A stretch of 64,000 nt of DNA from Eledone cirrhosa (taxonomy: Eukaryota). This document shows, one piece after another, positions 109 through 64,000 of this stretch. Made by a program: the position numbers and the translations under genes. The notes below the pieces were generated by a model that had not been told where the DNA came from, searched no databases, and was given only the letters and a program-made list of their open reading frames with translations. The DNA lies in assembly GCA_964016885.1 (NCBI GenBank), contig OZ024743.1:26288001-26352000 (forward strand). Direction: 5' to 3'. The first letter of the stretch is position 1. Each line of letters opens with the position of its first letter.

Positions 109-3100
109 GTTAGTTATCATTTCATTATTTTCATGAATAGTTAAGGTACGTGGCTTTGTAGTTAGGGAATTTTGCTCACAATCATAAGGTTGTGAGTTCA
201 ATTCCCAGCGGCACATTGTGTCCTTCAGCAAGACTCTTTATTTCATATTACTCTAGTTCACTCAGCTGGCATAAATGAGTTGTACTTGTAATTCGAAAGG
301 CCAGCCTTGTCACATTCTATGTCATGCCGAGAACTATGTTAAGGGTACATGTGTTTGTGGAATGCTCAGCCACTTGCATGTTAATTTCACGAGCAGGCTA
401 TTCCATTGATCGGATTAACTGGAACACTCGTCTTTGTAATCGATGGAGTGACTTCCATTTTCATTAATGGCCATACTTTATCATACTCATTAATTTTTAT
501 TATAAAAATATCCTGTCTAACTTAATTTAATGATAAATAGTTGTTGTTATGATTTTAAACAAAACTGTATTTCTTTTTAAATCTTTATTTTACTGTTCTC
601 TTATAGGTTCGAGATCATCCTATATATCATTTGATTAGAGCACGAATACAGAAAAAGCAAGGAGAGTTGTCTGATGCTTTGCAGACATTGAAATTTGCTA
701 TGAATCTTCCAGGAATGAAGATATCTGGTTAGAATAGTGTTTTGTTTTGTTTTGTCGTTGATGTTTTTTTGGGGTTTTTTTGCGGCAAGATTTTTGCATC
801 TTATTAAAAATCAAGGAAAACTTACATATTTCCTAAAGATATTCAACAACTGTTTAGTGTCGTGTTTGGTAGATAACATAGATTAGGGATAATGAATGAA
901 AAGGTGGCAGGAGCCAAATAACTTTTCTTACTCCTTCCACATATTTTTCTCACCAACAGAGATCCAAGCTAAACAAACAAAATATTTATATTAAATACTT
1001 CATCATCTGCTTAAGATAACATCGCTAATATTAATATAAATAAAATTATTTGCTAAAGCAAATTTCATATTATTGTGATACTATTTTCTATACAAAAGAA
1101 AATATAAGCAGCTATTGAAATAGAATAAAAACAGACTTTCTAGCATCAGTTCATCCACTGTAGTTCCTGGAATCATATATTTCTCCGGAATTCATATTCA
1201 AAGACAAAGCCACTATTAATTAGATTCTTTTTATTTTTCATTTGTCTGTCTGTTAATGTGAATTGTTATTAATATTTTCTTGTTATTGTATCATTCTAAA
1301 GACAAAATGACCAATAAGGAGAAGAACCAGATTTCTGTAAATGATAAAGTATCTGTCTATCTGGAACTTGCTGACTCACATAAACTTCTTGGGGAACAGG
1401 TAAGGATGTATAAAGCTTGATTCTCAAAAATATCCTTTCATAAAATGTGCTTATATGACACAGAACCAAAAACAAGTCTCCAGTGGGACTATTGCCAACT
1501 TCTAGTTGATACTTTGATGCTACATACCTACACACACATTACCTGAATTGATGTTGCTCCAATTGTATTTTTTCATTCAAGTGTACATATGTTGTTTTAG
1601 TTGTTTGTTTATGATCATCAATCTTAGAGTTTCAATCAACAACTCTATTTCCTATCCCTTGTTCTAGAATGATATCATCCAATTTGTGTAGGTCATTTTA
1701 AAGAACATAGTAATAGACTCATCATTATCATCACCACCACTGCCACCCTCACTACCACTCTGTTTATCAGACTTATACAGACAGAAACAACAGTTGTAAA
1801 ACTACCAAACTGAAAACAAAGCTTTGTTTCAGATAGGTTATTAAATGAAAAATCAATTTATTGATAAATTTTGCAATCAATTAAATCCATCCTTAATTGC
1901 TCTTTTCAATTTTTAGCACGAAGCAGCTAAAGTAATGCAGGATGCAATAAATGAATTTCAAGGCACACCTGAAGAAATAAGAATCACAATTGCTAACGTA
2001 GACCTGGCATTGGCTCGTGGAGATGTTGAAATGGCACTTGGTACTCTCAGAAATGTTAGTTCTGAACAGCCATACTTCATACAAGCCAGAGAGAAAATGG
2101 CAGATATCTATCTGAACTACAGGAAGAACAAGACACTTTATGCCAACTGTTATCAGTATGAACTCTTTTGAAAATTTTTATCGGGGAGATGGTTATATGT
2201 TTTAAAAATCTCAATAGAAATTGTGTTATGTATATAAATATTATTAGTAAGTTCCTGTGGGTAATTTTATGAAAGTCCTCACCCAGTCCTCACTGTAAAG
2301 TGGTCATGTAGGTGTCACAACAAAAAGCACCCAGTCCACACTGTAAATGTGGTTGGTGTTAAGAAGGGCATTGAGCTGTAGAACCAAGCCAAAATCAGTT
2401 CTATGTGAGCGAAACATGTTCCTCCGACCTGATCTCTCACAAAGAGACAGCCCATCCTATCCATGCTAGCGTGGAAAATGGACATTAACCGATGATGAGG
2501 ATGATGATTGTTTTTAGGCAGTATAGACAACTTATTACAAGATATTATTATCATATGCATCCAGTACATTCTATAAAGAGGTTGACATTAGGAAAGATAT
2601 ATAAAAGTACAAACCCTGCCAAAATAAGGAATGTTTAGCACAGCATGATATTCAGACCATTTTGTCTATTTTTATTCATAGGTACATTTCACTTCAGTAT
2701 GTTTTATTACTCCCATCACACACAAAAAGAATATTATAAACAACTCTTATTAACCTGATATAAAATATCATTGGTGTGATCCTAGAATGTAGAGGAGCAG
2801 GACACCATCTGGTGTTTGGACTAGAAGTTGTTAACAAATATTTGTTTGACTTGGAAGTGATGATTGAAGCAGGTCTCATGTACCAGATATGGAACAGTAT
2901 CTAGGTCAAGAAGTTTCAGGACCTTTTCAAAGGAAACTAAGCATTTAAGGTTTAGAAAAGAAGATCTAGTCTTCCAATGCTCTTATGGATATGATTTTGT
3001 TTACTATTGTGATTTTTTAGTTGTGAATCATCCATGAGCTGAGGGAAGTGTCATGATTCTATTTTTTAGAAGTCCACCATAAAATGCATTGGTGGTATTT

Positions 3101-6100
3101 CTGATCTTTTACAAACATTTTAAGATCCAATTTATGTACCTAGTGCAGCTCAAATTTCCACTTTGGTGTGTAGTTTTCCCCCCTTTAAATACAGTGCTAA
3201 TGTTGTTCTTTTATTATATTTCAGAGAATTGGCTGATAGAAAGCCTAGTGTCCATACTTCATTATTACTGGGAGATGCATACATGAGTATTCAAGAGGTC
3301 AGTTGATTATTTGAAAGTTTAGATATGACATCAATAAATATTCAGTTCATCTTTAGGCCCCACAACCCCATAAGTGAAAATAGTAGAATAAGCTTTCTAC
3401 ATCCTTTTCCCAAAAAAAGATTTTTAAGATTGTCACAAATAAATACCTTTTATGGATAAACATTCCCCAATGCTTCAAGTTTATCAAACATCTTAAACAG
3501 TATTTATTCTATATTTATTGTTGAGACAATTGCCACAGATATGTATGAGCCAACTAGGTAGCCTATACATGGTATTTCAAAATGGTAGAAATAGCAGCCA
3601 AACTTCTCTCAAACCACACCCCCCTATCTTATGTAGATCATTCATGAGTGAAGGGGGTCTACAGTATTGTGCTTGAGTCTCATTGTGGAATATATATTTC
3701 TCTCTCATATAGTTGAGAATATAGTGAAGCAATTGTTTTCTTTGTTGATGAAGGTAATAATGATGCTCTGTATATGACATGTTTAATTTCTTTTCCTTTT
3801 TTTAATATTGTCAGCCTGACAAAGCTATAGACATTTATGAAGAGGCACTGAAAATGAATCCAAAGGACACAACCCTTGCACATAAGATTGGCAAAGCTTT
3901 GGTGAAAACTCATCAGTATGGAAAGGTAACTGCTGCTAATATATTTTTGATTTTACATTATTTTCCATCTAATTGGATTGACCAATTGCTTTTTTTTTTA
4001 TCATGGTTATTATCTGTTGGTGATCTATATTTACTTAGGCTAAAGATGATAATAATGAGGAGGGTGCTGTAGAGAGAGAGAGGAGAAAAATGGTGAGGGT
4101 GGAGAGCAAAATAAGGATGTTATTAATGTTATCATCATCTACAATTGTGGACTCAGGCATTGTTGTTTGGTTGAGAAGTTGGCTTCACAATCATATGGTT
4201 TTGAATTCAATCCCTATACACACCACTTTTTCTACCATAACCTCAGACTGACCCCAACTTTGGAATTCAAATGTGAAAGCATGCTGTATGAACTGTACTT
4301 GTTCTTAGGTAACAGACCTAATAAATAACTCAGCTTACCACCATCACCTAACCTTCGAGTCCACTCCATTGTAAGCACTGAGACCAGATCTCCAGTCTAA
4401 GGTTTAGTTATGTTGATGTACTTCTTACTGCAATAACTCATGAATAGTGGTTTCTTCCTCCATTTCCTTCTTAAGACCCAGCAGGAAAGGTCATGGAGGC
4501 TGCTCTCCCTTGTCTGACTAAGCCATCAAAAGATTGTTAGAACATTACAAATCCTCATCATTTATTACACCTTCCATTCCATCTGCATTTGTATCTAGCC
4601 CATTTCTTTATCATCGTGGCTGATTTGCTTGATCAGAATGATCTGGAATACTACAGTAATAGCATTCACTTCTATGTTATTTTAATTTTCCAGGCTGTGA
4701 CTTACTATGAAGCTGCTATCCGATCTGGAAATCAGAGTCAATTTTGGTAAGAATAATCTTTGATTTTCTTCAATATTTTAGATTCAATGTTGGGTCTACA
4801 TTTATTTCTCTAATTTTTTTTTGATGGTATGGTTTGAAGGAATAGGCTGTCTCTTAGGCTCTTTGAGGCTAGTAAAACCAACTTTGTTAATGTTCTGCTT
4901 GAACAACTACAATTTGATAGCTATTGAAAGAAAACAAAGGTAGGGAAGCAATTCCAGAGAGTTATAGTCCTTGGAGGAGGGACTAGAGTAAACAGTTAGT
5001 GCAGGGTCTGAGGGTAAAGGAAAAGGAAACAATATGGGTGGTGAGAGAAGGAGAGACACGTGAATCACTAATGCCTAAGTGGTGGGAACTCAAGATTGGC
5101 TAGCTCCAAGGAATAGCAGCAAGAGTTGGGCAATGTGAGAGAACACAATGAGGGCCTTATGGTTGAAAAGTGGTAGTGACACAATAAAATGCACCCAGCC
5201 CACTCTGTAAAGTGGTAGCACTTGTACCACAACAAAATCCACCTATCTCACTCTGTAAACTGGTAGTAATGGTGCCACTATAAAAGGCACCCAATCCACT
5301 TTGTCAGTTGGTAGTGTTGGTGTCACGATAAAATACACCTAGTATATGCCATGAAGTGGTTGGCATTAGGAAGGGTATCCAGCCTTAGAAACCATGCCAG
5401 AATGGAATGTATGGGGGAGATGTAGTCATCTGATCTATCTAGTCATAGAACGTAAGAATCTGTCTAACTCATGTGAGTATGGAAAATAGAAGTAAAATGG
5501 TGATGATATATATATCTATACATATATATAAAATTGAAGTTGTCTCTGAGGGTGTGTGTCCTAATTTTGGCAAAGTCTATACAAATCCACATTTCTACCC
5601 CGATTGACTTCAAACTTGCATTTATATATTCCTTGCGGTCTAAAGATATTAACTGCAGCTTTTATTTTTCAATTTTCTGTTGTTAAAGGCATTTTTTTTC
5701 ACTAAAACTTTAAGCCCTTTTTGTCAGATAGTTCGGAAATTTTGTCTACAATGTTCAAGAGAGACAACTCTTTAGTATTTTGAAAGAGTTACCTCTCTTT
5801 ATAGACTATATTATCCCTACTTAACTGTACATCCCTTGAAATTGTTGATGGTGACCCCAATAGTAACTCCGAAGCGTTCGGCATTCGATATAACCGTTCG
5901 GTTTATATCAGATTGTGTAGATTTTTGTAACCTTAAAAGTATCCAACTAAATTCCTTCATGCTCTCCACCACTGCAGTCCCACATGCTTACTGCTCTGTA
6001 ACTATTGCTTTCATCGTACCATAGCACAACAAATACAAGTGCGGTTTGTCGAATGCCTTTTTACTTAACCCTATCGTCTTGGCTTTCGTGGGTTGAACAT

Positions 6101-9100
6101 TTTACTCTCAGGCACCCAATTAAGTTAAACCCCTGGTAATCTATAACAAATTTTTTTTATAAGCACAAAATGTAGACACCATCCCCAGGCCGAGGTATTC
6201 CGTACTTCTCTGTACTGTTTCAGAAAGGAGGGATAAACATGCCAATCTATGTTTAGAAGCCCGATCAACGCCGGGCCATTCTGCTAGTATATATACACAC
6301 AAAGATATTAATTGCACACACACGCACATATTTCAAGACATACACAAACACAATCTCTTACATACTCAATAAGTTATTTACACATTTTATTTATTTATAC
6401 AAACTGAGGCACATGGCTTAGTGGTTAGAGCATTGGCCTTGCAATCGAAAGGTTGTGAGTTCAATTCTCAGACCGGGTGATGTGTTGTTTCCTTGAGCAA
6501 GACACTTTATTTGACATTGCTCCAGTTTACTCAGCTGTAGAAATGAGATGATAGGGACTGGGTCTCTATCATTCCACTACAAAGTGGTCGTGGAGGTGCC
6601 ACGGCAAAAAAATCACCCAGCACTCACTGTAAATGAGGTTGGTGTTAGGAAGAGCATAAAAGCTGTAGAAATCAAGCCAGAATGAGTTCCCATCCCACCC
6701 TTGCAAACAGGGAAAAGCGGACGTAAAATGATGATGATGTACTGTTTTTGTTTGTTTTAGTGTGGATCTTGCTGAACTGCTGTTTCGTTTAAAACAATAT
6801 GACAAGTCAGAGAAAATATTAAAGCATGTGTTAGAAGAAGATATATTATGTGAGTTGATGACAGACTTTAGTAGTTTCTTTTCCTGTTTCTAACTGGTCA
6901 TGAATTTTGGGTAATGACTGAAAGATTACAATTGCGATCATATTCTTTCAGTCATTACCCATGATTCATGACCATAGGTAAGGGTTGGATATAATTGACT
7001 AATTAATTTAGTCTATTGGTATTGTATCTCCCTTAATAAAAATGTTTGATGAATGTTGAAATAAAGGATTTTAACTGAGTAAAGCCTTTGGTTACTTCCT
7101 CTGAAATGTATATATATATATTGTGTGTGTGTCTGTGTGTATGTATAATATACTAAACACCCTTTAAAGGTCTGTGAAAAAAGAAAATGAATATTATTTA
7201 TTCCATCTGTAAAATAATGAGTTATTTACTAGTATATGTAAAGATTATATATAATAAATCCTATACTTTTTTGCCTCTATTTATTTCCATTGCAATTATC
7301 CCCATTTTTTTATTCACTAATTGTTATTAGATTCTGATTTGGATACTATGATAGTCCATGTTAACTGCATGGCTCTCTTGGCCAGACTGTATCAACAAAT
7401 ACACTGCAATGAAGCTGCAATGCTATATTTCTCTAAAGCTAAAGAGCTGCAAATAAAGTAAGTGGTCTTCTGTCATAAAATGGAATATGGTTCTTTTAAA
7501 TTAATTTTCACGCATATTATTTCACTCATTGAATTAAATTTCACACACCCTTAACCCTTTAGTATTTAAACCAGCCGTATCCAGCCAGAATTCTCTGACC
7601 TCTTTCTGTTCAAACTGGCCATAACTGGTCACTCATACTGATGTTAAGGTATTGTTCTCAAAATAAATAACATCAAAATTTTGTAGAATTGATATTCATC
7701 ATCACCGTCATCATCATCACCGTTTTACGTCCATTCTTCCACGCTAGCATGGGTTAGACGGGTTGTCCTGTTGTGGGCAGTGTCTGGTCGGCTGACCATA
7801 CCTTGCTCATACAGGAACTGATTTGGCTTGATTTCTACAGCTGAATGCCCTTCCTAACACCAACCTCATTTACAGTGAGTGCTGGGTGCTTTTTCCGTGG
7901 CACCTACACGTCCACTTTACAGTGTGGGCTGGGTGCTTTTTTGCCGTGGCACCTCCACGACCACCTTGCAGTGCGAGGATCATCATCATCATCACCGTTT
8001 TACGTCCGTTCTTCCACGCTAGCATGGGTTAGACGGGTTGTCCTGTTGTGGGCAGTGTCTGGTCGGCTGACCATGCCTTGCTCATACAGGAACTGATTTG
8101 GCTTGATTTCTACAGCTGGATGCCCTTCCTAACACCAACCTCATTTACAGTGAGTGCTGGGTGCTTTTTTGTGGCGCCTACACGTCCACTTTACAGTGTG
8201 GGCTGGGTGCTTTTTTGCCGTGGCACCTCCACGACCACCTTGCGGTGGGGGGTGTGGGGGCATATTGTCTATATGCTTCAGCTTGTACCCATGGGAGGTC
8301 GGGTACTCTGTATTACTGCATGACGCCAGAGGTCACGGTCGTGTGTCATTGCCTTTGAGAGGTGTAATTGGGTAAGGTCGGCTTTTACCACCTCATCCCA
8401 GGTCATCTTGGGTCTCCCCACTCCGCGGTTTCCATCGACTTCTAGTGCTCTGCACCTTTTTATGCAGCTGTCATCCTTCATACGCATCACATGTTCATAC
8501 CAGCACAACCGCCTCTCCTGCACACAGCATTTGATTCCTCTTATGCTCAGTCTCTCTCTCAATTCATTTATGCTTTGTCGTTCACGTATATTACTGTTAC
8601 ACATCCATCGGAGCATGCAGGCTTCGTTTCTCTCTAATCTACGTAAGTCTTCCACCTTCAGCGCCCAGGTCTCACTACCATGCAACATCGCTGTTCGGAT
8701 ACACGCATCATACAGTCTGCCTTTCATTCTGAGGGAGAAGCCTTTTGCAGCTAGCAGTGGTAGTAGTTCCCTAAACTTCTTCCATCCCGTTCTTACCCTA
8801 GTTATTGTACTTTCTGAACACCCACCTCTGCTGCTAATTCGGTCACCTAGGTAGCAGAAGCTGTCTACTGTTTCTACAGAGCCCTCCCAGAGATTGGTGG
8901 TACTTGTTTCCTGTGGCTGTTTGCTGCTTGCTGCTTGCTGCTTGCTGTCCCAGCACAGCTGCTGCATGTGAAGCCTACATTCTTAATTAAGCTTCCTGAG
9001 ATCCCACTACATCTCTTGTGTACCCATTGTTTGCATTTTGGGCAGAGAATGGAGTTCCTACCTATACCTTTCCTACATACTGAGCAAGGCCATTTCCCTG

Positions 9101-32300: not shown

Positions 32301-35300
32301 TATATATATACAATGATTGGAGGCACATGGCTTAGTGGTTAGAGCATTGGCCTTGCAATCGAAAGGTTGTGAGTTCAATTCTCAGACCAGGTGATGTGTT
32401 GTTTCCTTGAGCAAGACACTTTATTTCACATTGCTCCAGTTTACTCAGCTGTAGAAATGAGATGATAGGGACTGGGGTCCCTATCATTCCACTGCAAAGT
32501 GGTCGTGGAGGTGCCACGGCAAAAAAGCACCTAGCACTCACTGTAAATGAGGTTGGTGTTAGGAAGGGCATCCAGCTGTAGAAATCAAGCCAGAATCAGT
32601 TCCCGTCCCACCCTTGCAAGCAGGGAAAAAGCGGACGTAAAATGAAATGATGATGAATGAATGATATTAAATAAATGGAAACTATATTTATAAAACCATA
32701 TTTATTCTATTATATATATTTCAAGGGTACCAAAACTTTGGTACGCTATCATCAGATAAAATACGAAGTGTGTTTTATAAATTTTAACATAACCAAGGAA
32801 AATATACCTTAACGGTTAAAGTTTTCCTTGGAAGTTTTCCTTGAACCGTTTAGGTATATTTTCCTTGGTTATGTCAAAATTTATAAAACACACTTCGTAT
32901 TTTATCTGATGATAGCGTACCAAAGCTTTGGTACCCTTGAAATATATATAATAGAATAAATATGGTTTTATAAATATAGTTTCCATTTATTTAATATCAT
33001 TGAATATTATACTCTAGAAAATTTGTCGAGTGCTCTGAATCAGTTATAAACATTTATATTTGTTGAATTACCAACAAATTGAATATCCCTTCTGCTTATA
33101 TATCATCATCATCATCATCATCACCGTTTTACGTCCGTTCTTCCACGCTAGCATGGGTTAGACGGGTTGTCCTGTTGTGGGCAGTGTCTGGTCGGCTGAC
33201 CATGCCTTGCTCATACAGGAACTGATCTGGCTTGATTTCTACAGCTGGATGCCCTTCCTAACACCAACCTCATTTACAGTGAGTGCTGGGTGCTTTTTCG
33301 TGGCGCCTACACGTCCACTTTACAGTGTGGGCTGGGTGCTTTTTTGCCGTGGCACCTCCACGACCACCTTGCGGTGGGGGGGGGGGGGCATATTGTTTAT
33401 ATGCTTCAGCATGTACCCATGGGAGGTCGGGTACCCTGTATTACTGCGTGACGCCAGAAGTCACGGTCGTGTGTCATTGACTTTGAGAGGTGTAGTTGGG
33501 TAAGGTCGGCTTTTATCACCTCATCCCAAGTCATCTTGGGTCTCCCCACTCCGCGGTTTCCATCAACTTCTAGTGCTCTGCACCTTTTTATGCAGCTGTC
33601 ATCCTTCTAAATATATAAATATCCTATATATTGGATGGCCGTTATGAGTTCTTCCACCCTTTTGTCAGGTTTTGTTTTTTGTCCTGTGGGGTGTCCAAAA
33701 TCACCCTTTAGTCGCCGACGACCCGACAGGTTGTACTGGGTTACATGTTACCAGTAGCACTCAAGAGTGACCCGACACATACATACATCGAAACCTAGTC
33801 AGTAGGCACCTCTTAACAAAAATACACCCCCGTCCCACTACCCCCACCCCATCCACACCACCCCTTTCAATGTAAAGTTATGTTGGTACCATAACATCCA
33901 GTCCGAAATAAATGAGGTCGTGTAGGTGTCACGACAAAAAAATACACAGTCCACGCTGTAATGTGGCCGTGTAGGTAACACGGTAAAAACCTCCCAGTCC
34001 ACACTGTAAACGTGGTTGGTGTTAGGAAGGGCATCCAGCCGTAGAAAACCAGCCAGACAGTCCTATACGAGCAAGACAACCAATCTTGCCTCAAGTGGGA
34101 AAATTCCCGTCCAAACCCATGCGATGATGATGATGATGATGATATATATATAGTGCGCGCACACACACACACACACACATATATAAAGAGAGAAAGAAAT
34201 TAGGAAAATCGCAATGCTTACAGGCCAGCTGGAACAAAATGGGTCCTCTTTTCAGATTTTACTAATTACTATACCTCAACGGACATCCTGTACCTAAACA
34301 GACATCAAATTCTACCTTGATCTATGGTCTTCCCAGTATGCATACATTAAATATTTCATATATATTGAGCAAGATTTTTGAAATCATGACCCTTTCTATC
34401 AGACAAACATTAAATGATGATGATGATCTTTTTTTTAGGATACAAGCTTGCCTTCAACTATCTTAAAGCCAAACGCTACACAGATGCCATTGATATTTGT
34501 AATTTGGTATGTACTTCCCAGTTTAACACCTCGTTATGTTTGGTTATAATTGAATTCTAAAAGGCAGTTTGTCGTCTTTGTTCTTTGTGCTGGTGTTTTG
34601 AATAATTTTTTTATTTGCTTTATTGTGAAAATTTTGGACCAATTATATACAAATTACTACTTGCCAAATATATTTGTAGTATTTGAATTCTTTTATTTTT
34701 AATACATATGAAAAAAATCTTTGTTATTCATTGTTGTCACCTTGCCTAACAAAGATTAAATCCCTTAGGCTTATATATTCATTCTATGAAATATATTCTT
34801 GTCATCGTTGGCGACTCACCTTACTGAAGTGTCAGGTGATGCCTGTGAGGGTGCCTGGTTGTTTCAGCGCCTTCTCCTCGCCATCACCCGTGGTAATGTT
34901 GTGAGCATATTGGCTTGCCTCAAAATATTCCATTGACCCTTGTGATGTGCAGCTGATTGTCAGGTGAATTGATGGTCAATTTTGTTTTTGTTTCCTTTTT
35001 TTTTCTCTCTCGCTCTGGTCGTATATTCTGATGCATTATATTTGTGAGGTTCCTAGCAATAGTTAATTGTATTTATTATATGGGTTTATATTTGTGTTTA
35101 CATTTTCATTCTGAAAGAATTGTAAGCAATTTGTTACTAAGAGTTATTAATAAACATATCCTCGATTTCTTGAAATTATCTCCCTTTTCCTTTGAAAGCT
35201 GCTCACAATTACCACTAGGTTTTTTTTTATGGGAAAAGCATTCACTGTTATACTGAGTTGTACTGCAGATGGAGGGAAACTATCACTATACATCATCTTC

Positions 35301-43800: not shown

Positions 43801-46800
43801 CGGGGTTAAAAAAATAAAGTACCAGTAATGCACTGGGGTGATTGCTGGCCTTGTGCCAAAAGTAGAAACAATTATTATTGCTATAGTTATTGATTTTTAT
43901 CCTCGTTGACATCATTTTTGTTGATTACTAGTCTGGCAGAGCAGAATGGTTATATCCAAAAAGGGACAATGAAATATTTCAAATACTTTTTCTGACTTAA
44001 ATCACAAAGATATTTCCCCAAACTCTCTCAACATCAATAACATGTGTAATTGTAAATGCAAGCCATCCAGATAAGTTCAGTTATGTTGTTCTGTATAAAC
44101 CAGATCTTGTAATTTAGCAAATATTTTCCTCAATTAAGAATTCTGTCAATTAATTTCATTTTTACCATTTCAATTACATTTCTCAAAAAACATCACATTT
44201 ACACTGTTAATGTTCTTCAGAGGGGTATGAATGTCACAAAATGCCTTTTTTAGCAGCCCTGCATGTCTGAGTCTTTGTCACAAATAAGTCTAGTGTGTGT
44301 GTGCATGCATGTATGTCTATGAGGCTTATTCAAATAGACTGTTTCAATAACTTGTGTCAAAATATTTTTCTTTACCTTCAACTTTTTCTTCTTCTTTAAC
44401 GTCAACCTTTTCTTTTTCTTTTTCTTTTTCTTTTTCTTTTTCAACTTTACATACACCACAGGATTTTTCACAATTCACTAGCATATAGTTTGAATTTTTT
44501 TGGCATTCACCGCGCTTAGCCCATGTGGGACACATCTCGTGTTTGTCTTCACAAACTGTATCAACAAAAATATAACCTTTATAATGTAATTCATTTTCAT
44601 TCCCTTGAGTTGTAAACAAAGAATTGCAGCTTGTTAGGCCAATAAGATGCCAGTCTCTCATCTTGTATGGAGCCAGTGCATATCTTATCATCAGCAGTGT
44701 CTTTGGCAAAGTGGGAAACAATAGACTCTATTGCAGTCACTTTGTTGACTTCTGTAAACAATTTGCCTTTCTGAAAAGTACTTTTATATATTTACAACAC
44801 CAAGTTCAAACCTTCCCATGAACAGCCTTACAATATAGTGTGCTTGAGTAAAGCTGCTCTAAATTACTCATTACCTTAAAAGCTTATATAAAATTTAGTA
44901 ACAGTGGTCGTGTAGGTGTCACGACAAAAGGCACCCAGTCCTCACTGTAAATGAAGTTGGCATTAAGAAGGGCATCCAGTTGTAGAAAACAAGCCAAAAT
45001 CAGTTCTGTATGAGCAAGACATGGTCACCTGACCTAGTATTGCCTACAATATGACAACAACTCATCAACCCATGCCAGCATGGAAAAATGGGCATGAAAC
45101 GGTGATGATGATGAAGTGCATACAAAAGAAAAACATCAAAACAGCTGTGAATTTAAGTATGAAACTGAAAATGCATGAACGCTATTTTCAAGATCACCGC
45201 AAGTGGAAAATTAAATCAAATACAGATAAAATTCCGTTATATAACGAATACCATTATAACCAATTTTTCAGTATAATAACATTTTTTCAATCCCGAGGTA
45301 ATAAAAAACAAACGCTCGATATATTTCGGTCAATCTCGTTATAAAGAATTTTTCGTTCGTTACAACAAATTTTTTTTATACCCCATGAATTTCGTTATAA
45401 TGGAATTTCACTGTATATTAAATCTTCTAAACTTGGTAAATATTTCAATTTCAAAGAATTTGCTTACCCAATTCTTCTCCAGATTCACCTTCACCACATG
45501 GATCTGTAATAATAAATTATAACAAAAATTATTAGATAGTCAGAAACAACCAAATTGGTGATGGTGGTGGTAGTAGTAGTAGGAGTAGTAGTAGTAGTAG
45601 TTCTTGTTGTATGTATGTATGTATGTTTGTATATATATGAGTGTGTTAACTACAACTTCAAGTTTTACTTTTTAAGGTTTATTCAAATAGTCTGTTTGAA
45701 TAATTTGTGTCAAATATTTTTAGCAGCCCTGCATGTCTGAGTCTTTGTCCGGAATATGTCTAGTGTGTGCATGCATGTATATATGTAAGTATGTATACAT
45801 GTATATGAGTGTGTTGATTAACTACGACTTCAAATTTTACTTTTTAAGACTTATTCAAATAGACTGTTTGAATAATTTGTGTCAAAATATTTTTCTTTAC
45901 CTTCGACCTTTTTTTTTTCGCCAACTTTACATACACCACAGGATTTTTCACAATTCACTAACATATAGTCTGGATTTTCTTTGCATTCACCAAGTTTAGC
46001 CCATGTGGGACACATCTCGTGTTTGTCTTCACAAACTGTATCAACAAAAATATAACCTTTATAATGTAATTCATTTTCATTCTCTTGAGCTGTAAACAAA
46101 GAATTGCAGCTTGTTAGGCCAATAAGATGCCAGTCTCTCATCTTGTATGGAGCCAGTGCATATCTTATCATCAGCAGTGTCTTTGGCAAAGTGGGAAACA
46201 GTAGATTCTATTGCAGTCACTTTGTTGACTTCTGTAAACAATTTGCCTTTCTGAAAAGTACTTTTATATATTTACAACACCAAGTTCAAACCTTCCCATG
46301 AACAACCTTACAATATAGTGTGCTTGAGTAAAGCTATCTTGCCAACAACAACCTTGAGCATCTTTTTGAATTCCATGTGTCTAACACCCATGAACATGCC
46401 TACAAAGTCAGAAAACAGCACAGCTCACATGACTTTTGGAATTATTTTTTTTCATGCTCAGAGTTGCTGAAGCATAGAAAAAACTACCAGCATCAGTTGT
46501 TAGCTGTCAGGACACTGCATCCTTCAAAACATCCATGCTTCCCGAAATTCACCAATACTACACCTGATATTCCCCCTCCATACACACGCATGCATGTATC
46601 TGTGTATATAACATGACTCATACACTGTTCACTTTCCTGACATTTGTACATTATTCTATGTACTATATATGCACCTTTAATGAGTTGTAGTGCACCTGAG
46701 CACTGTACACAATAATTTTCATTATTATTATTATTAATTACTCATTACCTTAAAAGATTATATAAAATTTAGTAACAGTGTGCATATAAAAGAAAAATAT

Positions 46801-55800: not shown

Positions 55801-58800
55801 ACTTGATTGGTACTTTATTTTAGACCCTGGAAGGATGAAATGCAAAGTTGACTTCAACAGGATTTTAACTCACAAGAACAAATACCACAATGGCATTTTG
55901 TTTTATGTTCTGCCAATTCTGCCAGTCAACCACACTTAACCCTTTAGCACTTACATTACTCTATATTTACCATTGTATTTTTGTGGTAAAGGCTTTACCT
56001 CACATAATTATCTCACATAATATTGAATCTACGAGATTTTTATATTATCTATTTTGAGAACAATACCTTAACATAAGTATGAGTGGCCAGTTACAATCAG
56101 TTTGAACAGAAAGAATTGAGAGAATTATGGCTGGTTACAGCCGGTTTAAATGCTAAAGGGTTACTTATTACTTAAATATTAATATACTTACGTAGGAGCC
56201 ATAATGCATTATACTTCTATAGTCATAGGGAACATTATACAAGTTCATCGCTTTAAATGGCTGTTTCTTGAAATTGTAGAAAAGACTATCGATGACATTA
56301 CTTTTTACGATATTGACATACTTATCACGGTCATATCGGGTCTGCTCATGGAAAAGGCCAATAGCATGACCAAGTTCGTGCAATACAACACTTTTCTGTT
56401 ATGAAAAATAAAAGAAAACGTCAGATTAATTACATACATCAAATAAAATATGTGAAAGTCAACCCAACGATTCAAATACTGGTATGACTAGTTTATTTTA
56501 ATAAAAACTGTTCCTCAACATTTTTTCTGGTTACAATTCCTAAAATGTATGCTAACTTGTTAAGAGACAATGGTAGAGCCTCTACTTAGACAGTTGCTCA
56601 GCTAGAAATACTAGTCAGAAATCTGGTTGGAGAGGTTAGAACTTAACTAGAACTTTATTTTATCAACTCTAGAAGGATGAAATGCAAAGTTGACCGTGGT
56701 GGAATTTGAACTTAGAACATAAAAAGTCAGAATAAACACTTTATGGCATCTTGTCCTACTTTCTAACAATTCTGAAAAGCAATTTATAATGGGGAGAGGG
56801 TTGAATTGAATAAAAGATCACGTATCACCATCGATGGTCTACCCTGCTATGTTTAAACTAGATATTTTCAAATTGAAACATTCCAGAATAATTAGGAAAT
56901 GCTGCAAAACTTACCACTCGGCAATTCTTTGCAAGTAAAATGTTCTGAGAATTGGTCTGCATTCCAATGAAAGAACTACACCTTTTAAAGAAATATATTT
57001 TTGGCGTAAAAATGTTGTCAGCAGTAAAAGAAATTGCATACAGTGAGGTGTAAAACATTCCATGGTACGAGAAGTGTACATGGTATTCACCTCAGTGAAA
57101 GGTACATGAATATGGTATGGTATGGTGTCGTGTCGTATGGTATGGTGTGGTATGGTGTGGTATGGTATGGTATGGCATGGTATGGTATGGTATGGTATGG
57201 TGTGGTATGGTGTGGTATGGTATGGTATGGTGTGGTATGGTATGGTGTGGTATGGTGTGGTGTGGTATGGTATGGTGTCGTGTCGTATGGTATGGTGTGG
57301 TATGGTGTGGTATGGTATGGTATGGTATGGTGTGGTATGGTATGGTATGGTATGGTGTGGTATGGTATGGTATGGTGTGGTATGGTGTGGTGTGGTATGG
57401 TATGGTGTGGTATGGTGTGGTATGGTATGGTATGGTATGGTATGGTATGGTGTGGTATGGTGTGGTATGGTATGGTATGGTGTGGTATGGTGTGGTGTGG
57501 TATGGTATGGTGTGGTGTGGTATGGTATGGTGTGGTATGGTATGGTGTGGTATGGTATGGTGTGGTATGGTGTGGTGTGGTATGGTATGGTGTGGTATGG
57601 TGTGGTATGGTATGGAATGGTATGGTATGGTATGGTGTGGTATGGTGTGGTATGGTATGGTATGGTGTGGTATGGTGTGGTGTGGTATGGTATGGTGTGG
57701 TGTGGTATGGTATGGTGTGGTATGGTATGGTGTGGTATGGTGTGGTATGGTATGGTATGGTATGGTGTGGTATGGTATGGTGTGGTATGGTGTGGTATGG
57801 TATGGTATGGTATGGTGTGGTATGGTGTGGTATGGTATGGTGTGGTATGGTGTGGTATGGTATGGTGTGGTATGGTATGGTGTGGTATGGTATAGTATGG
57901 TGTGGTATGGTGTGGTATGGTGTGGTATGGTGTGGTGTGGTATGGTGTGGTATGGTGTGGTATGGTATGGTGTGGTATGGTATGGTGTGGTATGGTGTGG
58001 TCTGGTGTGGTGTGGTATGGTATAGTATGGTGTGGTATGGTGTGGTATGGTATAGTGTGGTGTGCTGTGGTATGGTGTGGTGTGCTGTGGTATGGTATGG
58101 TATGGTGTGGTGTGGTATGGTGTGGTATGGTGTGGTATGGTATGGTGTGGTGTGGTATGGTGTGGTATGGTATGGTGTGGTATGGTATGGTATGGTGTGG
58201 TATGGTGTTGTATGGTATGGTGTGGTATGGTGTGGTATGGTATGGTGTGGTATAGTATGGTGTGGTGTGGTATAGTATGATATGGTATGGTATGGTGTGG
58301 TATGGTATGGTATGGTATGGTGTGGTATGGTATGGTGTGGTATGGTGTGGTATGGTGTGGTATGGTATGGTGTGGTATGGTGTGGTATGGTATGGTATGG
58401 TATGGTATGGTATGGTGTGGTATGGTATGGTGTGGTATGGTGTGGTATGGTATGGTATTGTATGGTATGGTATGGTATGGTGTGGTATGGTATGGTGTGG
58501 TATGGTATGGTGTGGTATGGTGTGGTATGGTGTGGTATGGTGTGGTATGGTATGGTGTGGTATGGTGTGGTATGGTATGGTGTGGTATGGTATGGTGTGG
58601 TATGGTATGGTATAGTATGGTGTGGTATGGTGTGGTATGGTATGGTATGGTGTGGTGTGGTATGGTGTGGTGTGGTGTGGTATGGTGTGGTATGGTATGG
58701 TGTGGTATGGTATGGTGTGGTATGGTATGGTATGGTGTGGTGTGGTATGGTATAGTATGGTGTGGTATGGTGTGGTATGGTATGGTATGGTGTGGTATGG

Positions 58801-61800
58801 TGTGGTATGGTATAGTGTGGTGTGCTGTGCTGTGGTATGGTGTGGTGTGCTGTGGTATGGTATGGTGTGGTGTGGTATGGTGTGGTATGGTATGGTGTGG
58901 TATGGTATGGTGTGGTATGGTGTGGTATGGTTTGGTATGGTATTGTGTGGTATGGTGTGGTATGGTATGGTATGGTGTGGTGTGGTGTGGTATGGTATGG
59001 TGTGGTATGGTATGGTATGGTATGGTGTGGTGTGGTATGGTATAGTATGGTGTGGTATGGTATGGTGTGGTATGGTATGGTGTGGTGTGCTGTGGTATGG
59101 TATGGTGTGGTGTGGTATGGTGTGGTGTGGTATGGTGTGGTATGGTATGGTATGGTATGGTATGGTGTGGTGTGGTATGGTATAGTATGGTGTGGTATGG
59201 TGTGGTATGGTATGGTATGGTGTGGTATGTTGTGGTGTGGTATGGTGTGGTATGGTATGGTGTGGTATGGTATGGTGTGGTGTGCTGTGGTATGGTATGG
59301 TGTGGTGTGGTATGGTGTGGTGTGGTATGGTGTGGTATGGTATGGTATGGTGTGGTACGGTACGGTGCGGTGTGGTATGGTGTGGTGTGGTATGGTGTGG
59401 TATGGTGTGATGTGCTGTGGTATGGTATGGTGTGGTATGGTGTGGTGTGGTATGGTGTGGTATGGTGTGGTGTGCTGTGGTATGGTATGGTGTGGTAAGG
59501 CATGGTATGGTAAAGCATGGTATGGCATGGTTTGTTGTGGTGTGGTATGCTATGGTATGGTATGGTACAATATGGTGTGGTATGGTGTGGTATGATGTGG
59601 TATGGTGTGGTATGGTATGGTGTGGTACGGTGCAGTGTGGTACGGTGCGATGTGATATGGTGTGGTATGGCATGGCATGGTATGGTATGGTACAGTATGG
59701 TATGGTATGATATGGTATTGTATTGTATCGTGTGGTATGGTATGGTATGGTACGGTGTGGTATGGTATGGTACGGTATGGTGTGCTACGGTATGGTTTAG
59801 TATGGTATGGTGTGGTATGGTTTAGTATGGTATGGTGTGGTATCGTATGGTGTGGTATGGTATGATTTGGTACGGTGTGGTATGGTGTGGTATGGTATGG
59901 TATGGTGTGGTATGGTATGGTATGGTGTGGTACGGTGTGGTATGGTATGGTATGGTACGGTGTGGTACGGTGTGGTATGGTATGGTATGGTGTGGTATGG
60001 TATGATGTGGAATGGTATGGTATGGTACGGTGTGGTATGGTGTGGTATTGTACGGTGTGGTATGGTACGGTGTGGTGTGGTATGGTACGGTGTGGTATGG
60101 TGTGGTATTGTACGGTGTGGTATGGTACGGTGTGGTGTGGTATGGTACGGTGTGGTATGGTATGGTGTGGTGTGGTAGGGTATGATGTGGAATGGTATGG
60201 TATGGTATGGTGTGGTATGGTATGGTACGGTGTGGTGTGGTATGGTACGGTGTGGTGTGGTATGGTATGGTACGGTGTGGTGTGGTATGGTATGGTATGG
60301 TATGATGTGGTGTGGTATGGTATGGTATGGTGTGGTATGGTGTGGCATGGTATGGTACGGTATGGTACGGTGTGGTATGGTACGGTATTGTGTGGTACGG
60401 TGTGGTATGGTATGGTATGGTGTGGTATGGTGTGGTATGGTTTGGTGTGGTATGGTGTGGTATGGTATGGTATGGTATGGTGTGGTATGGTGTGGTATGG
60501 TATGGTATGGTATGGTACGGTATGGTACGGTGTAGTATGGTACGGTATTGTGTGGTACGGTGTGGTATGGTATGGTATGGTATGGTATGGTATGGTATGG
60601 TATGGTATGGTATGGTATGGTGTGGTATGGTATGGTATGATGTGGTATGGTATGGTGTGGTGTGGTATGGTATGGTACGGTATGGTATGGTACAGTATGG
60701 TATGGTATGGTGTGGTGTGGTGTGGTAAGGCATGGTATGGTAAAGCATGGTACAGTATGGTATGGTGTGGACCTGTAACTCCCAAGGGTGTTTCTAGGGC
60801 ATTTTATTTTAAACCTGGCAAAGCCCATCTCTTCTCCAGGTCTGAATACAGCAGATATCTTCCAGAGAGAAGATAGAGAGGGTGAGAGAATGGAAGTGAG
60901 AAAGAGATATAGAGGAAGAATTGACCCCAGTATTTGACTTTTAAATATACCCGAGTAAGTATCATCATCATCATCATGTTTAAAATATTCCATACAATAA
61001 GAGATATGTAAATATACACTACAGTGGAGGACATATATATGAAGCGGTGTAGAGGAAGGCCACGAAAAACATGGGTGGAGAAGGTGAGAGCTGACCTCAG
61101 ATCACTGAAGCTCACAGAGATGATGAAGGACTGTAACGAATGGAGAGAGGTTGTGCTGAAGAGAACCCATCCCACCCTTGCAAGCAAGGAAAAGCGGATG
61201 TAAAGTACCAGTCAAAGGTAGTGATCTGGCGAACTTGTTAGTTCCGTTAGCCCAGCTTCAGTCAATTGTTGACATGCTGCTTTGCATATTTCTTAGTCCT
61301 CTCTATTCTATTGATCCCTTGAGATTATATTTAAATCTACTCTACATTTAACGAGGTACATTTACAGTCTTCTTCTTACCCAGTTCCCCTTGAGATTATA
61401 TTTAAATCTACTCTACATTTAACGAGGTACATCTACAGTCTTCTTCTTACCCAGTTCCAAACAAATTTTTCAGATGAGAAAATATTATTTATTTATGCAG
61501 TATTGTCGTTGCTATGTCCAGGTTTTGTCTATATTTAAAAATCTTCTGCAAATAAAACAGATCTGCTACATTTAAATAATCTAAATTAGCAAAGAAGAAG
61601 AAGAAGAAGAAAAAGAAAAAGAAAAAGAAAAAGAAAAAGAAAAAGAAAAAGAAAAAGAAAAAGAAAAAGAAAAAGAAAAAGATAAATATTTGCAATAGCA
61701 CTTTAAAAAAAACGTTTAAAAAATAGAATAGTTTCGGTGGTTGAGTGTTACAACTGCTGGTTATATAACTTCTAATTTTAAATGGCACAGACTTTCAGAG

Positions 61801-61961
61801 TTCAATCCCCAACGAAAAAAATGTAGTTTCAACTTACCCATTACCATTTCTAAATGTAATCTTGTTTTTATCACTTGAAGTAGCTTTCCGGAATTTAATA
61901 CACGTTAAAGCATTCCACTCGTCCATAGATTTCTGTATTTCAAGTTTCTGTTCGTCAGTGA
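40700..61961 (-). CDS. Astacin-family (M12A) zinc metalloprotease with EGF-like module and five C-terminal ShK (ShKT) domains; 12 exons visible, N-terminus outside the window
   Basis: Minus-strand GT-AG exons in transcript order: 61838-61961, 56915-56981, 56192-56395, 53042-53168, 51503-51601, 47303-47335, 45901-46035, 45468-45503, 44376-44555, 42745-42873, 41607-41744, 40700-40812; phases consistent. Zinc motif HELGHAIGLFHEQTRYDRD and Met-turn SIMHY are present. ShK pattern CxD...CxxW...C...YM...CxxSCxxC occurs five times. Confidence 0.92.
40985..41277. mobile_element. Tigger/pogo-like MITE (left end eroded)
   Basis: GGAACCTTGGTTCACCAAC ... GTTCATGAACCGAGGTGCCACTG-TA inverted termini. Confidence 0.55.
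41607..41744 (-). CDS. ShK domain exon 4
   Basis: DCSDANNHCKDWANADHCNINPSYMLKHCKKSCNVCGNNTKIIGAE. Confidence 0.9.
42745..42873 (-). CDS. ShK domain exon 3
   Basis: ECKDMETNCKVWADYGECKKNPLYMLKNCKLSCNECKVNEANE. Confidence 0.9.
43012..43872 (+). mobile_element. Cluster of four head-to-tail tRNA-SINE copies (family ending ...GTGCCTAAAGTAGAAACA)
   Basis: Units at ~43012, ~43205, ~43460, ~43688; other copies at 24848-25020(-), 28400-28580(-), 30185-30340, 50255-50425, 51120-51328(-), 55517-55700. Confidence 0.85.
44376..44555 (-). CDS. ShK domain exon 2 with (KE)n linker
   Basis: VCEDKHEMCPTWAKRGECQKNSNYMLVNCEKSCGVCKVEKEKEKEKEKEKVDVKEEEKVE. Confidence 0.88.
45221..45415. mobile_element. Tigger/pogo-like MITE
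   Basis: TA-CAGATAAATTCCGTTAT ... ATAATGGAATTTCACTG-TA; absent from the duplicated intron copy. Confidence 0.6.
45468..45503 (-). CDS. Astacin gene 36-nt linker mini-exon (copy B)
   Basis: DPCGEGESGEEL; same splice context as copy A. Confidence 0.75.
45901..46035 (-). CDS. ShK domain exon 1
   Basis: VCEDKHEMCPTWAKLGECKENPDYMLVNCEKSCGVCKVGEKKKVE. Confidence 0.88.
47303..47335 (-). CDS. Astacin gene 33-nt linker mini-exon (copy A)
   Basis: DPCGAVETEEV; CAG acceptor, GTAAGC donor, phase 1-1. Confidence 0.75.
47840..48590 (-). mobile_element. Degenerate LINE 3' fragment (second RTE-like family; related piece at ~26030-26630)
   Basis: ORF 48173-48460: LKQVKKLKY...LTYGYKSW...RIQAAEM. Confidence 0.75.
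48634..49598 (+). mobile_element. RTE LINE 3' fragment
   Basis: ORF 48761-49198; near-identical to 19410-20351. Confidence 0.92.
51503..51601 (-). CDS. Astacin gene exon: six-cysteine EGF-like module
   Basis: DHCPKKTCPRNGYVGKDCECYCLDIKKSVRKCS. Confidence 0.88.
51900..52620 (-). mobile_element. Degenerate RTE-like RT fragment
   Basis: EEVKTAVRQMNTGKASGKDGI...DWKGA...CDNYRETSLL. Confidence 0.75.
53042..53168 (-). CDS. Astacin gene exon: end of the catalytic domain
   Basis: EFSVNGEMTIKTLNKKYQHIIGKSNILSFNDVKLVNIMYNCS. Confidence 0.92.
55060..55475 (+). mobile_element. Degenerate LINE 3' fragment with (GAT)n tail
   Basis: DGAYTNLLRRIKNIRW...LQFAGHC remnant. Confidence 0.55.
55937..56163. mobile_element. 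piggyBac-like MITE, intact copy
   Basis: TTAACCCTTTAGCA ... TGCTAAAGGGTTA termini. Confidence 0.75.
56192..56395 (-). CDS. Astacin gene exon: zinc-binding motif and Met-turn
   Basis: KSVVLHELGHAIGLFHEQTRYDRD...YDYRSIMHYGSY. Confidence 0.95.
56915..56981 (-). CDS. Astacin gene exon
   Basis: (G)CSSFIGMQTNSQNILLAKNCRV. Confidence 0.88.
57111..60770. repeat. ~3.66-kb pentanucleotide satellite (TATGG/TGTGG)n inside an astacin intron
   Basis: Directly visible; accounts for all the long HTIPY/MVWYG ORFs. Confidence 0.98.
61316..61457. repeat. Two-copy 71-bp tandem duplication
   Basis: CCCTTGAGATTATATTTAAATC...CTTACCCAGTTC twice. Confidence 0.9.
61594..61681. repeat. (GAA)n/(GAAAAA)n microsatellite
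   Basis: Directly visible. Confidence 0.9.
61838..61961 (-). CDS. Astacin gene exon: N-terminal part of the catalytic domain
   Basis: TDEQKLEIQKSMDEWNALTCIKFRKATSSDKNKITFRNGN. Confidence 0.88.
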
Positions 61962-62587
61962 CTGGAAATGGTTGGAGAAATAGAATAGAAACGAAGATGA
62001 TACAATAATTTAGAAACTACCAAATTCAATAATATTTTCTTGAAGAAATATCCCCAATCAAAAGCTCTGACTCCATTCTTCTTAGGAAAGTTGTGACTAT
62101 ATACTCATTTATATGGATAAACATTATATATTTATTTCGTTTATTCTAGAATTACCTATAGATATTTTTTTAAACCTTCATTAAAATTTTATTTGTCAAT
62201 ATAACCGTCATCATAATATTAGAAATAAAAAGAGAGAAAAAGAAAGAAAAGGGAAAGGAAAAAAGAAAAAAACACACAAGTAGGTAATACACACATTTAG
62301 GACTACATACAACAAAAGGCAGCCGAAAGGGGTGGGTGGACAAACGAACCGCCGCCAGAGCAAAATATAACGATATTACCTATATATATATACTGCAAAC
62401 TTGACTGTCACCACTGAATATGAAGCTGAAGATTGCGAAAGCATGAAAGTACTTGTTCAATTAACACTTAACATTTAATATTCTACCATACTATTTCATT
62501 ATAATTTTAAAGGATTGTAAATAAAACGAGTAAATCAGACAAAGTTAGTTGGAATTCCTTTTTATTAATATATATATATATATATAT

Positions 62588-63020
62588 ATAATATAAGATC
62601 AAAAGATGGTTAAAAGAGTTCCAAGTATTTTATTATGCGCATTTCAAAAACAAATATCATCATGAGATGATATCTGCGTTTTCATCAGATAAAATAGGGA
62701 TACATGATATGAAGGTTAAAAAACACTTGTGAATAGTGAAGTTTTAAATCATTAAATTATTTTTCATATGTTCATTTAAAACTTCACTATTCACAAGTGT
62801 TTTTTAACCTTCATATCATGTATCCCTATTTTATCTGATGAAAACGCAGATATCATCTCATGATGATATTTGTTTTTTGAAATGCGCATAATAAAATACT
62901 TGGAACTCTTTTAACCATCTTTTGATCTTATATTATTTATACTCCAGTCCTACAAACTAGAATGCTACTTATCCGATATTTGCATTGCTTTATTGTGCTA
63001 CAATAAAACTCACCTCCTAC
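62588..63020. mobile_element. Palindromic hammerhead-bearing element B (probable Penelope-like inverted pLTR)
   Basis: Inverted arms 62588-62749 / 62774-62936, 24-nt loop, ~85-nt extension; (TA)n on both sides. Confidence 0.65.
62827..62898 (+). ncRNA. Minimal type I hammerhead ribozyme motif (mirror copy on the - strand at ~62626-62696)
   Basis: TATTTTAT | CTGATGA | stem II GCAGATATCATC-tcat-GATGATATTTGT | GAAA | palindromic TGCGCA | TA | ATAAAATA. Confidence 0.78.
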
Positions 63021-63257
63021 ATATATATATATATATATATTGTGTTCGATGAAACAGCCTACTGACAAAAACAAGGAAAAAACACAGGAATAAAATATTC
63101 CAACCTAGCCATGGAATACCGTGAATTAAAAATTAATGAACAGTCATTACAAATTTATGGGGATGTATTTAGCTGTTATAAGGAAACTAGAAAAAACGTT
63201 CCTGGTCGACTGTTTAATTTTGTGGATGGAAATATTTTATAAATTACCATCTAATTA

Positions 63258-63441
63258 CAGACCTGCCAACCTCTAAAACCCGAAACGGGTAGTACCATAA
63301 AAAAGATGCCGGAAAACGGGGAGAAATGGAGCAAAATGGGGAGGTTTTACATAATAAAAGCTATACCCATTTTCACAAGAGAAGACATCTCGCCCACCCC
63401 AAAGTGGGTGGGAGATCTCCCTGTCGGACGGGGAGAGTCTG
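63258..63441. mobile_element. MITE, same family as 14530-14724
   Basis: CAGACCTGCCAAC left TIR, shortened right TIR, TAATTA on both flanks. Confidence 0.75.
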
Positions 63442-63827
63442 TAATTATAACCAGCCAAATTCACACTATGCAAATGAGCATTCCCAGCCGATGTTTTCTA
63501 TTTGCTATATGCAAGTATCCCCTGAAAATATTCAATATGAAAACTTCATAAGAGGCTCAAGTCTATTTTCATCTCAGCACCGGTTGAATGAATGATTAAC
63601 AAATTTTGAAGCAGCTAACTGGCATTCTTAACGGCTACTGAAATATTTGTCATGTTCACGGGGCAAAAGAGAGGGGGAAATAATGTTTTCATAACGAAAA
63701 TATTCTTTTTTCTTTGACAGCGCGGCTCTCATATGTTTATTGTATATAAACATATATTATAAACTTTCAGATAAACCCTTATTATACTTAACGATATGTT
63801 AGTAATGCTGCCAATTATCTCTCTCTC

Positions 63828-64000
<173 letters not shown>

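Follow-up and report, generated by a model that had tools for sequence, protein, structure and literature searches.

A palindrome with paired hammerhead motifs in an astacin intron of Eledone cirrhosa, probably left by a single Penelope-like insertion

The 64,000-nucleotide stretch of Eledone cirrhosa DNA analysed here (the window) contains a long palindrome, element B, with a hammerhead ribozyme motif on each strand. Such a structure could be a mobile unit in its own right, an RNA switch within its host gene, or the trace of another element's insertion. The evidence points strongly to the last of these: element B is very probably a single insertion of a Penelope-like element (PLE), consisting of two 5'-truncated, hammerhead-bearing terminal repeats that lie head to head within the (TA)n of an astacin intron.

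If one extra T is ignored, every one of the 162 positions of the left arm is matched by its complement in the inverted stretch 62774-62936; this T sits in the T-run of the right arm that ends at 62878, so that the arms measure 162 and 163 bp (Table 1). A centre of 24 nt separates the arms, an extension of 85 nt follows the right one, and (TA)n flanks both sides. The coordinates 62588-63021 thus confirm the preliminary description, which had reported inverted arms of about 162 bp, a 24-nt loop and an extension of about 85 nt within (TA)n. The length of the loop stands, but not its status as a separate sequence, since it is mostly element sequence into which the right arm continues in the 5' direction to about 62752. 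The centre also contains position 62766, a 5'-truncation hot spot of the family.

Table 1. Positions in the window of element B, its hammerhead motifs and the adjoining features
Feature	Position	Strand	Description
Left (TA)n target	62570..62587		Common to the neighbouring hammerhead-bearing repeat
Tail-less short-end (S) arm	62588..62749	-	Inverted, 5'-truncated copy of the PLE 3' end/pLTR
Second hammerhead motif	62626..62696	-	CTGATGA from 62688 on the - strand
Centre, head-to-head junction	62750..62773		AATC microhomology with one additional A (reading by eye)
Tailed long-end (L) arm	62752..63021	+	5'-truncated PLE 3' end
Hammerhead motif, type I	62827..62898	+	CTGATGA 62835, GAAA 62879, self-complementary ATGCGCAT, predicted cut after 62890
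PLE tail	62937..63021	+	85 nt, between the two family 3' ends
Right (TA)n target	63022..63040
Astacin exon downstream of B	61836..61961	-	Spliced to an exon 7.4 kb upstream

When the whole window was scanned with a descriptor, a type I hammerhead emerged on both arms, in agreement with the claim that each strand carries an intact core. On the plus strand, stem I is formed by TATTTTAT (62827-34) and ATAAAATA (62891-98), and CTGATGA, a 12-bp stem II hairpin, GAAA, TGCGCA and the UA cleavage site follow in this order, giving the type I core CUGANGA / GAAA / UH together with stems I and II. Stem II opens with an A-U pair in place of the usual G10.1-C11.1. The minimal hammerheads of metazoan PLEs, as set out in the available text of PMC4209133, share with B the long stem II, an extra unpaired base after A9 and a palindromic stem III, but have G10.1-C11.1 and a shorter stem I than the 8-bp stem of B. 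The free 6-mer of stem III is palindromic in 129 of 151 contexts, and folding predictions give -46.3 kcal/mol for the dimer of a single-arm hammerhead versus 2 x -16.6 kcal/mol for the monomers, both of which support the proposed dimer type. The motif is a genuine type I hammerhead of the dimer type, with a predicted cleavage site. The Rfam search that the preliminary description had proposed returned no hammerhead family at E<=10 over 58000-64000, only sub-threshold matches to miRNA hairpins.

A relaxed hammerhead pattern matches the genome 40,735 times, across several sister groups with different stem II sequences, versus 0 for a reversed control, and is thus not a product of chance. The available text of PMC4209133 quotes about 2,000-9,000 motifs per genome, compared with the roughly 40,000 obtained here for one pattern. 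Among 78 arms picked by an anchor outside the hammerhead core, variation amounts to 0.8% in the core, 1.1% in stem III, 7.5% in stem II and 5.7-10.4% in the flanks, much of the flank variation lying between subfamilies and the events not being independent. Stem II pairing is kept in 629 of 648 cells within the B clan, exclusively via Watson-Crick/G-U shifts and with no two-sided compensatory change in these 648 cells; groups outside the clan carry different sequences at this place that are also able to fold as stem II. The low variation of the core and the retained pairing suggest that the parent element's ribozyme is likely under selection. Core conservation, one part of the test proposed earlier, was accordingly found, whereas two-sided covariation of stem II inside the clan was not.

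A search of the 3.0-Gb genome with the right arm of B gave 1,221 candidates, 40 of which were scored. The 30 loci fetched share a constant 3' end, with (TA)n next to it in almost every case, and differ in their 5' ends. Longer copies continue from the arm across a 3' UTR (about 1.3 kb) and enter an ORF; in L021 and L031 this ORF lies directly 3' of the arm. Three copies (L031, L034 and L061) have the order pLTR-ORF-pLTR, with broken frames and pLTRs that are 95-97% identical to B. Tandem copies of a sister subfamily (L057 and L058; pLTRs 87-88% identical to B) contain intact ORFs of 800 aa, and the tandem period of L057 is 3,896 bp, i.e. a unit of 3.9 kb. Within the 64-kb window itself, no PLE ORF fragment was found.

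The 800-aa ORF contains the reverse transcriptase (RT) motifs QFDI and YRDD along with a GIY-YIG motif at the C-terminus (LIY...YFG). A Pfam scan of the ORF gave no family at E<=0.1; a protein search retrieved 37 homologues of 30-39% identity among 8,000 scored candidates, and 821-codon open frames hold 24 of 150 scored protein matches. Its look-alikes in the Atlas carry GIY-YIG, RVT_1 or HTH_animal in some of their members. Judged by its motifs, the 37 homologues and the Atlas look-alikes, the ORF encodes an RT joined to a GIY-YIG endonuclease (EN). With this ORF, tandem or partial-tandem pLTRs, truncated inverted copies with a tail and a hammerhead in the pLTR, the parent is a PLE of the EN+ type. 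The suggested link to Penelope pLTRs is borne out by the B-type pLTRs flanking the ORF in L031, L034 and L061, and the proposed search for further copies and adjacent RT/GIY-YIG ORFs was successful on both counts.

Its motifs make the parent a likely member of the Hydra clade, for which the available text of PMC8557442 lists DKT, CxCX5C, CxxC/CxH, the lack of CCHH, RWK, (TA)n targets and a hammerhead near the 3' end as diagnostics. In the 800-aa ORF, DKG is modified to DKT (residue 123), the CxCX5C linker is present (CNCRIKNKC at 659), and CxxC and CxH flank the conserved E and N (CNLC at 759, CLH at 787); no match to CX2-5CxxC and no CCHH in EN were found in it, and the GIY-YIG core contains one Cys. 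All but two of 98 terminal ends, read by eye, run into TA-type repeats. DKT, CxCX5C, the lack of CCHH, CxxC/CxH, (TA)n and the hammerhead near the 3' end are thereby common to the B parent and to Hydra-1_Obim of Octopus bimaculoides and Penelope-13_HM (Craig et al. 2021, PMC8557442, available text). The same source lists Penelope-13_HM with a 5'-truncated inverted copy and a hammerhead on each strand, as in B. The Hydra-1_Obim protein resembles the B-parent ORF in a comparison by eye, and its hammerhead likewise departs from G-C at the 10.1-11.1 pair, but differs from that of B in sequence. Differences from the clade as described there are the unit length (3.9 kb versus "generally <3 kb"), an N-terminal RW followed by T or I (RWT/RWI) instead of RWK, an Asn-rich stretch before EN, and a very high copy number with intact tandem copies. 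In the L057 ORF, the Asn-rich stretch (25%) occupies residues 575-660 between RT and the EN linker and is reminiscent of the N-rich inserts of rotifer Penelopes (PMC3846280, available text).

How the inverted arrangement arises can be read from the ends of many copies. The family was sampled by way of a 22-mer located downstream of the hammerhead, which has 19,891 sites; the first 100 of these were used, and every one lies on contig C1. The 3' ends fall at two positions, S (equivalent to 62936-62941; 54 sites) and L (equivalent to 63021, 85 nt further 3'; 44 sites), and two sites read into the ORF. Sixty-four of the 100 sites make up 32 head-to-head pairs within 7 kb, of which 29 are L+S, two S+S and one L+L. 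Exactly one tail is therefore present in 29 of 32 pairs, a share for which random pairing predicts 49% (p about 1e-6), and three pairs violate the rule. At the 5' side, stops cluster within 7 nt around the 62766 equivalent (32 of 100 copies), and only one copy in the 100 ends at a distance of 6 nt or less from the hammerhead cut. Thirty-five reach over 200 nt in the 5' direction, although many of these values are alignment limits and not true ends. The two 3' ends, the common stop site, the near absence of stops at the cut and the single tail per pair together fit priming at two sites without ribozyme cleavage.

The preliminary description had taken the palindrome for a self-standing non-coding mobile unit, of the retrozyme or MITE kind, that moves as a whole. 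The high frequency of short palindromes in the family would fit such a unit, as would the fused CATATG centre shared by three of 15 of them. However, these 15 have 13 different centres, the junction at the centre of B occurs once in the 3-Gb genome, arm lengths range from less than 50 nt to kilobases, running on into the 3' UTR and the ORF, and no head-to-tail array was found. As the arms form the end of an element with an ORF and the junction is unique, the claim does not hold, and independent mobility of B is highly improbable. The unique junction indicates that the palindrome was made at insertion. Arms differ in 24 pairs by a median of 0.5 of 118 nt within a pair versus about 8 between loci, and this identity, together with the 13 centres, indicates that the mirror image is built anew at each insertion. 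Two specific forms of mobile unit were also rejected. For a MITE or fold-back DNA transposon, no unit with a fixed interior and symmetric ends was seen copied across loci. Animal non-LTR retrozymes (Li et al., bioRxiv 10.64898/2026.07.22.740005, available text) resemble B in being non-coding and in their type I hammerhead derived from a PLE pLTR, but they are head-to-tail arrays with a hammerhead in each unit, whereas B is a one-off inverted pair with two inverted arms and a unique junction.

The preferred PLE insertion may be envisaged as follows. The endonuclease would cut both strands of the (TA)n tract, and RT would prime from each broken end at an internal start, S or L, on the element RNA. 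Both cDNAs would end early, in B after about 160 and 270 nt, and would then be joined by microhomology, leaving a palindrome with one tail. The parent hammerhead would likely be used in tandem element RNA, as a dimer or with the help of protein. From the DNA, combined with the two-start-site model of another PLE, we infer this twin priming at S and L. In that other element, PAc, both target strands are cut, two internal RT starts delimit the tail, and the hammerhead is dispensable for insertion in vitro and cleaves only with protein (Frangieh et al., PMC11167929, available text). Palindromic junctions have been described for Penelope/Poseidon insertions (Arkhipova et al., PMC3846280, available text), and an inverted 5'-truncated copy with a tail is given as typical of PLE insertions in the available text of PMC8557442. 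According to the available texts of PMC3846280 and PMC11167929, Penelope/Poseidon and PAc have in common with the B family the head-to-head pLTRs, the tail at one end, two 3' end positions, AT-rich targets and palindromes at the junction. Their tails are 30-40 nt long and end inside the ORF. The B family differs in both respects: its 85-nt tail stops short of the ORF, 79 nt ahead of the ATG. An alternative to twin priming would be that the endonuclease trims the AT-rich S site, as suggested in the available text of PMC8557442.

A PLE origin could also be combined with a different last step, in which one cDNA folds back and primes itself and the endonuclease resolves the product into a tail-less end. 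Self-priming has been proposed in PMC3846280 (available text), and it would account for the near identity of the arms within each pair and for the many centres that lie on small palindromes such as CATATG and GATATC. A single L-primed cDNA folding back would not, however, leave either arm free to be the longer one, and among the 29 L+S pairs this is clearly the tail-less arm in at least six and the tailed arm in six. Unpaired copies have S ends as well (21 of 36), and the two RT starts seen in vitro for another PLE (PMC11167929, available text) argue in the same direction. Fold-back is consequently rather unlikely, though it deserves more weight than independent mobility.

Further details of priming and termination come from the tail and the truncation hot spot. 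A hairpin, ACTC-CAG...CTG-NN-GAGT, lies directly 3' of S in 93 of 113 arms classed as tailed; mutated copies and misclassified arms are among the 20 that lack it, and the outer stem is partly required by the search pattern. Of these 93 arms, 86 have all 3 bp of the unconstrained inner stem paired, and no true compensatory change was seen among the 93. About five sister groups have the hairpin, its loop measuring 4-13 nt, and the copy in B (ACTC-CAG/CTG-GAGT) is damaged by the loss of 2 nt. As a guess, it may be an RT-binding element. In six loci (L015, L016, L018, L020, L024 and L025), (CA)n prolongs the terminal ...CCTACA of the L end ahead of (TA)n, possibly through RT stuttering at initiation or through insertion at a compound microsatellite.

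The 5'-truncation hot spot, TC|ATATG at the 62766 equivalent, is joined straight to TA repeats in 578 copies. It is possibly a transcript start or an RT pause site. Its TCA is what we take to be an initiator-like motif, and a leader starting there would contain eight ATG triplets. A cap-derived G was not supported. A G is present in nine of 26 stopping arms, but in several of these the opposite arm or an internal CATATCATG accounts for it, and it is present in only two of the first 100 of the 578 TA-joined copies. Transcription initiation at 62766 therefore stays conjectural.

Taken jointly, the tens of thousands of young Hydra-clade insertions may record integration in vivo. Priming would have taken place twice in each, once from either end of a double-strand cut and at two set positions on the RNA that bracket the 85-nt tail; the hairpin just 3' of the first site would be an RT-binding or template-boundary element, the shortest arms would be strong-stop cDNAs ending at the transcript 5' end (62766), and ribozyme-cut RNA would almost never serve as template. 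For this reading as a whole, the chances appear evenly balanced.

What element B does within its host gene is a separate matter. Astacin and ShK-like exons lie on the minus strand at 40700-62016 of the window, and in L032. A 1,184-nt contig of run X4 (library type unrecorded; the four runs are assembled contigs, on which the two exons were placed separately) joins the exon downstream of B directly to the upstream exon at window-equivalent 69374-69462. The intervening intron has GT-AG ends and contains B, and the suspected position in an astacin intron is thereby verified as a spliced intron of 7.4 kb. The best homologues of one astacin exon are Octopus metalloproteases (3 matches among 67 candidates, 71-74%). 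Elsewhere in the gene, the stretches near 44344-44791 and 45851-46271 look duplicated.

The intact core on both strands, and a splicing event from which transcription of the minus strand through B is likely, had made it conceivable that B acts as an RNA switch, regulating the astacin transcript by changing from a long hairpin to a self-cleaving ribozyme and back. In folding predictions, however, the full B RNA forms one hairpin (MFE -262/-272 kcal/mol), and forcing stem I, i.e. the ribozyme fold, upon it costs 89-90 kcal/mol. The antisense arm is transcribed ahead of the ribozyme arm in either direction, and a single transcript carries only one ribozyme. Since stem III forms only between two molecules, a cis dimer is impossible in B. 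Even in an isolated arm, free of the opposite one, stem I is not favoured (probability 0.02-0.03). Monomers of related metazoan minimal hammerheads showed no cleavage in vitro according to the available text of PMC4209133, and B is one young copy among tens of thousands. The switch postulated earlier thus founders on the folding cost of about 89 kcal/mol, the order of synthesis and the lack of a cis dimer; toggling in B is very unlikely on these models, and regulation of the astacin transcript by such a switch is the least probable of the readings considered. The hammerhead of B is predicted instead to be a passenger, buried in a 162-bp intronic dsRNA hairpin that would keep the ribozyme off.

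Several other repeats accompany element B. Element A (32660-33086) is a second head-to-head palindrome, from a sister group, with one tailed and one tail-less arm and a hammerhead pair at 32755/32906 in the descriptor scan; its stem I is that of B, its stem II is different (GGTACC type) and its stem III is TATATA. Directly left of B, at 62392-62570, lies a different high-copy repeat with a hammerhead of its own (CTGAAGA at 62426, a short stem II, a GTAC palindrome and a UU site), which also forms inverted pairs. This copy has G at 62425 versus C in the family, breaking the closing pair of stem I, and no PLE protein or ORF was found within 1.5 kb in 12 of 12 loci of the repeat. A second, imperfect hammerhead-like motif is present in L184, L186, L188 and L189 in the same orientation, about 280 nt upstream of the repeat's hammerhead, and the family may carry two such motifs per unit. 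An array of short TGGTA/TGGTG-like units with extreme G skew extends over about 4 kb (56900-60880), and another high-copy repeat, judged by contig depth, lies right of B at 63270-63460.

The literature already contains inverted pLTRs, tails and hammerheads paired across opposite strands; pairs of minimal hammerheads on opposite strands, 100-700 bp apart and derived from truncated PLEs, have already been reported (Cervera & de la Pena 2014, PMC4209133, available text). A literature search of partial coverage found no paper on the B-parent family or on the count of one tail per pair. Element B is thus a real but ordinary insertion of a known kind and at most a new family member, which corresponds to the outcome, real but not novel, that the preliminary description had allowed for.

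The palindrome itself is ordinary, but the parent family is useful, since PLE integration is still poorly understood. The genome-scale counts, which give one tail per pair and show no peak of truncations where the hammerhead would cut, are consistent with the two-start-site model derived in vitro, here in a different clade. The intact natural ORFs of the family are usable for biochemistry, and an intact family of high copy number makes the joint reading of integration directly testable. The host belongs to a lineage known for heavy A-to-I editing. If intronic palindromes of this kind are widely transcribed, they would represent a large source of long dsRNA in such a lineage.
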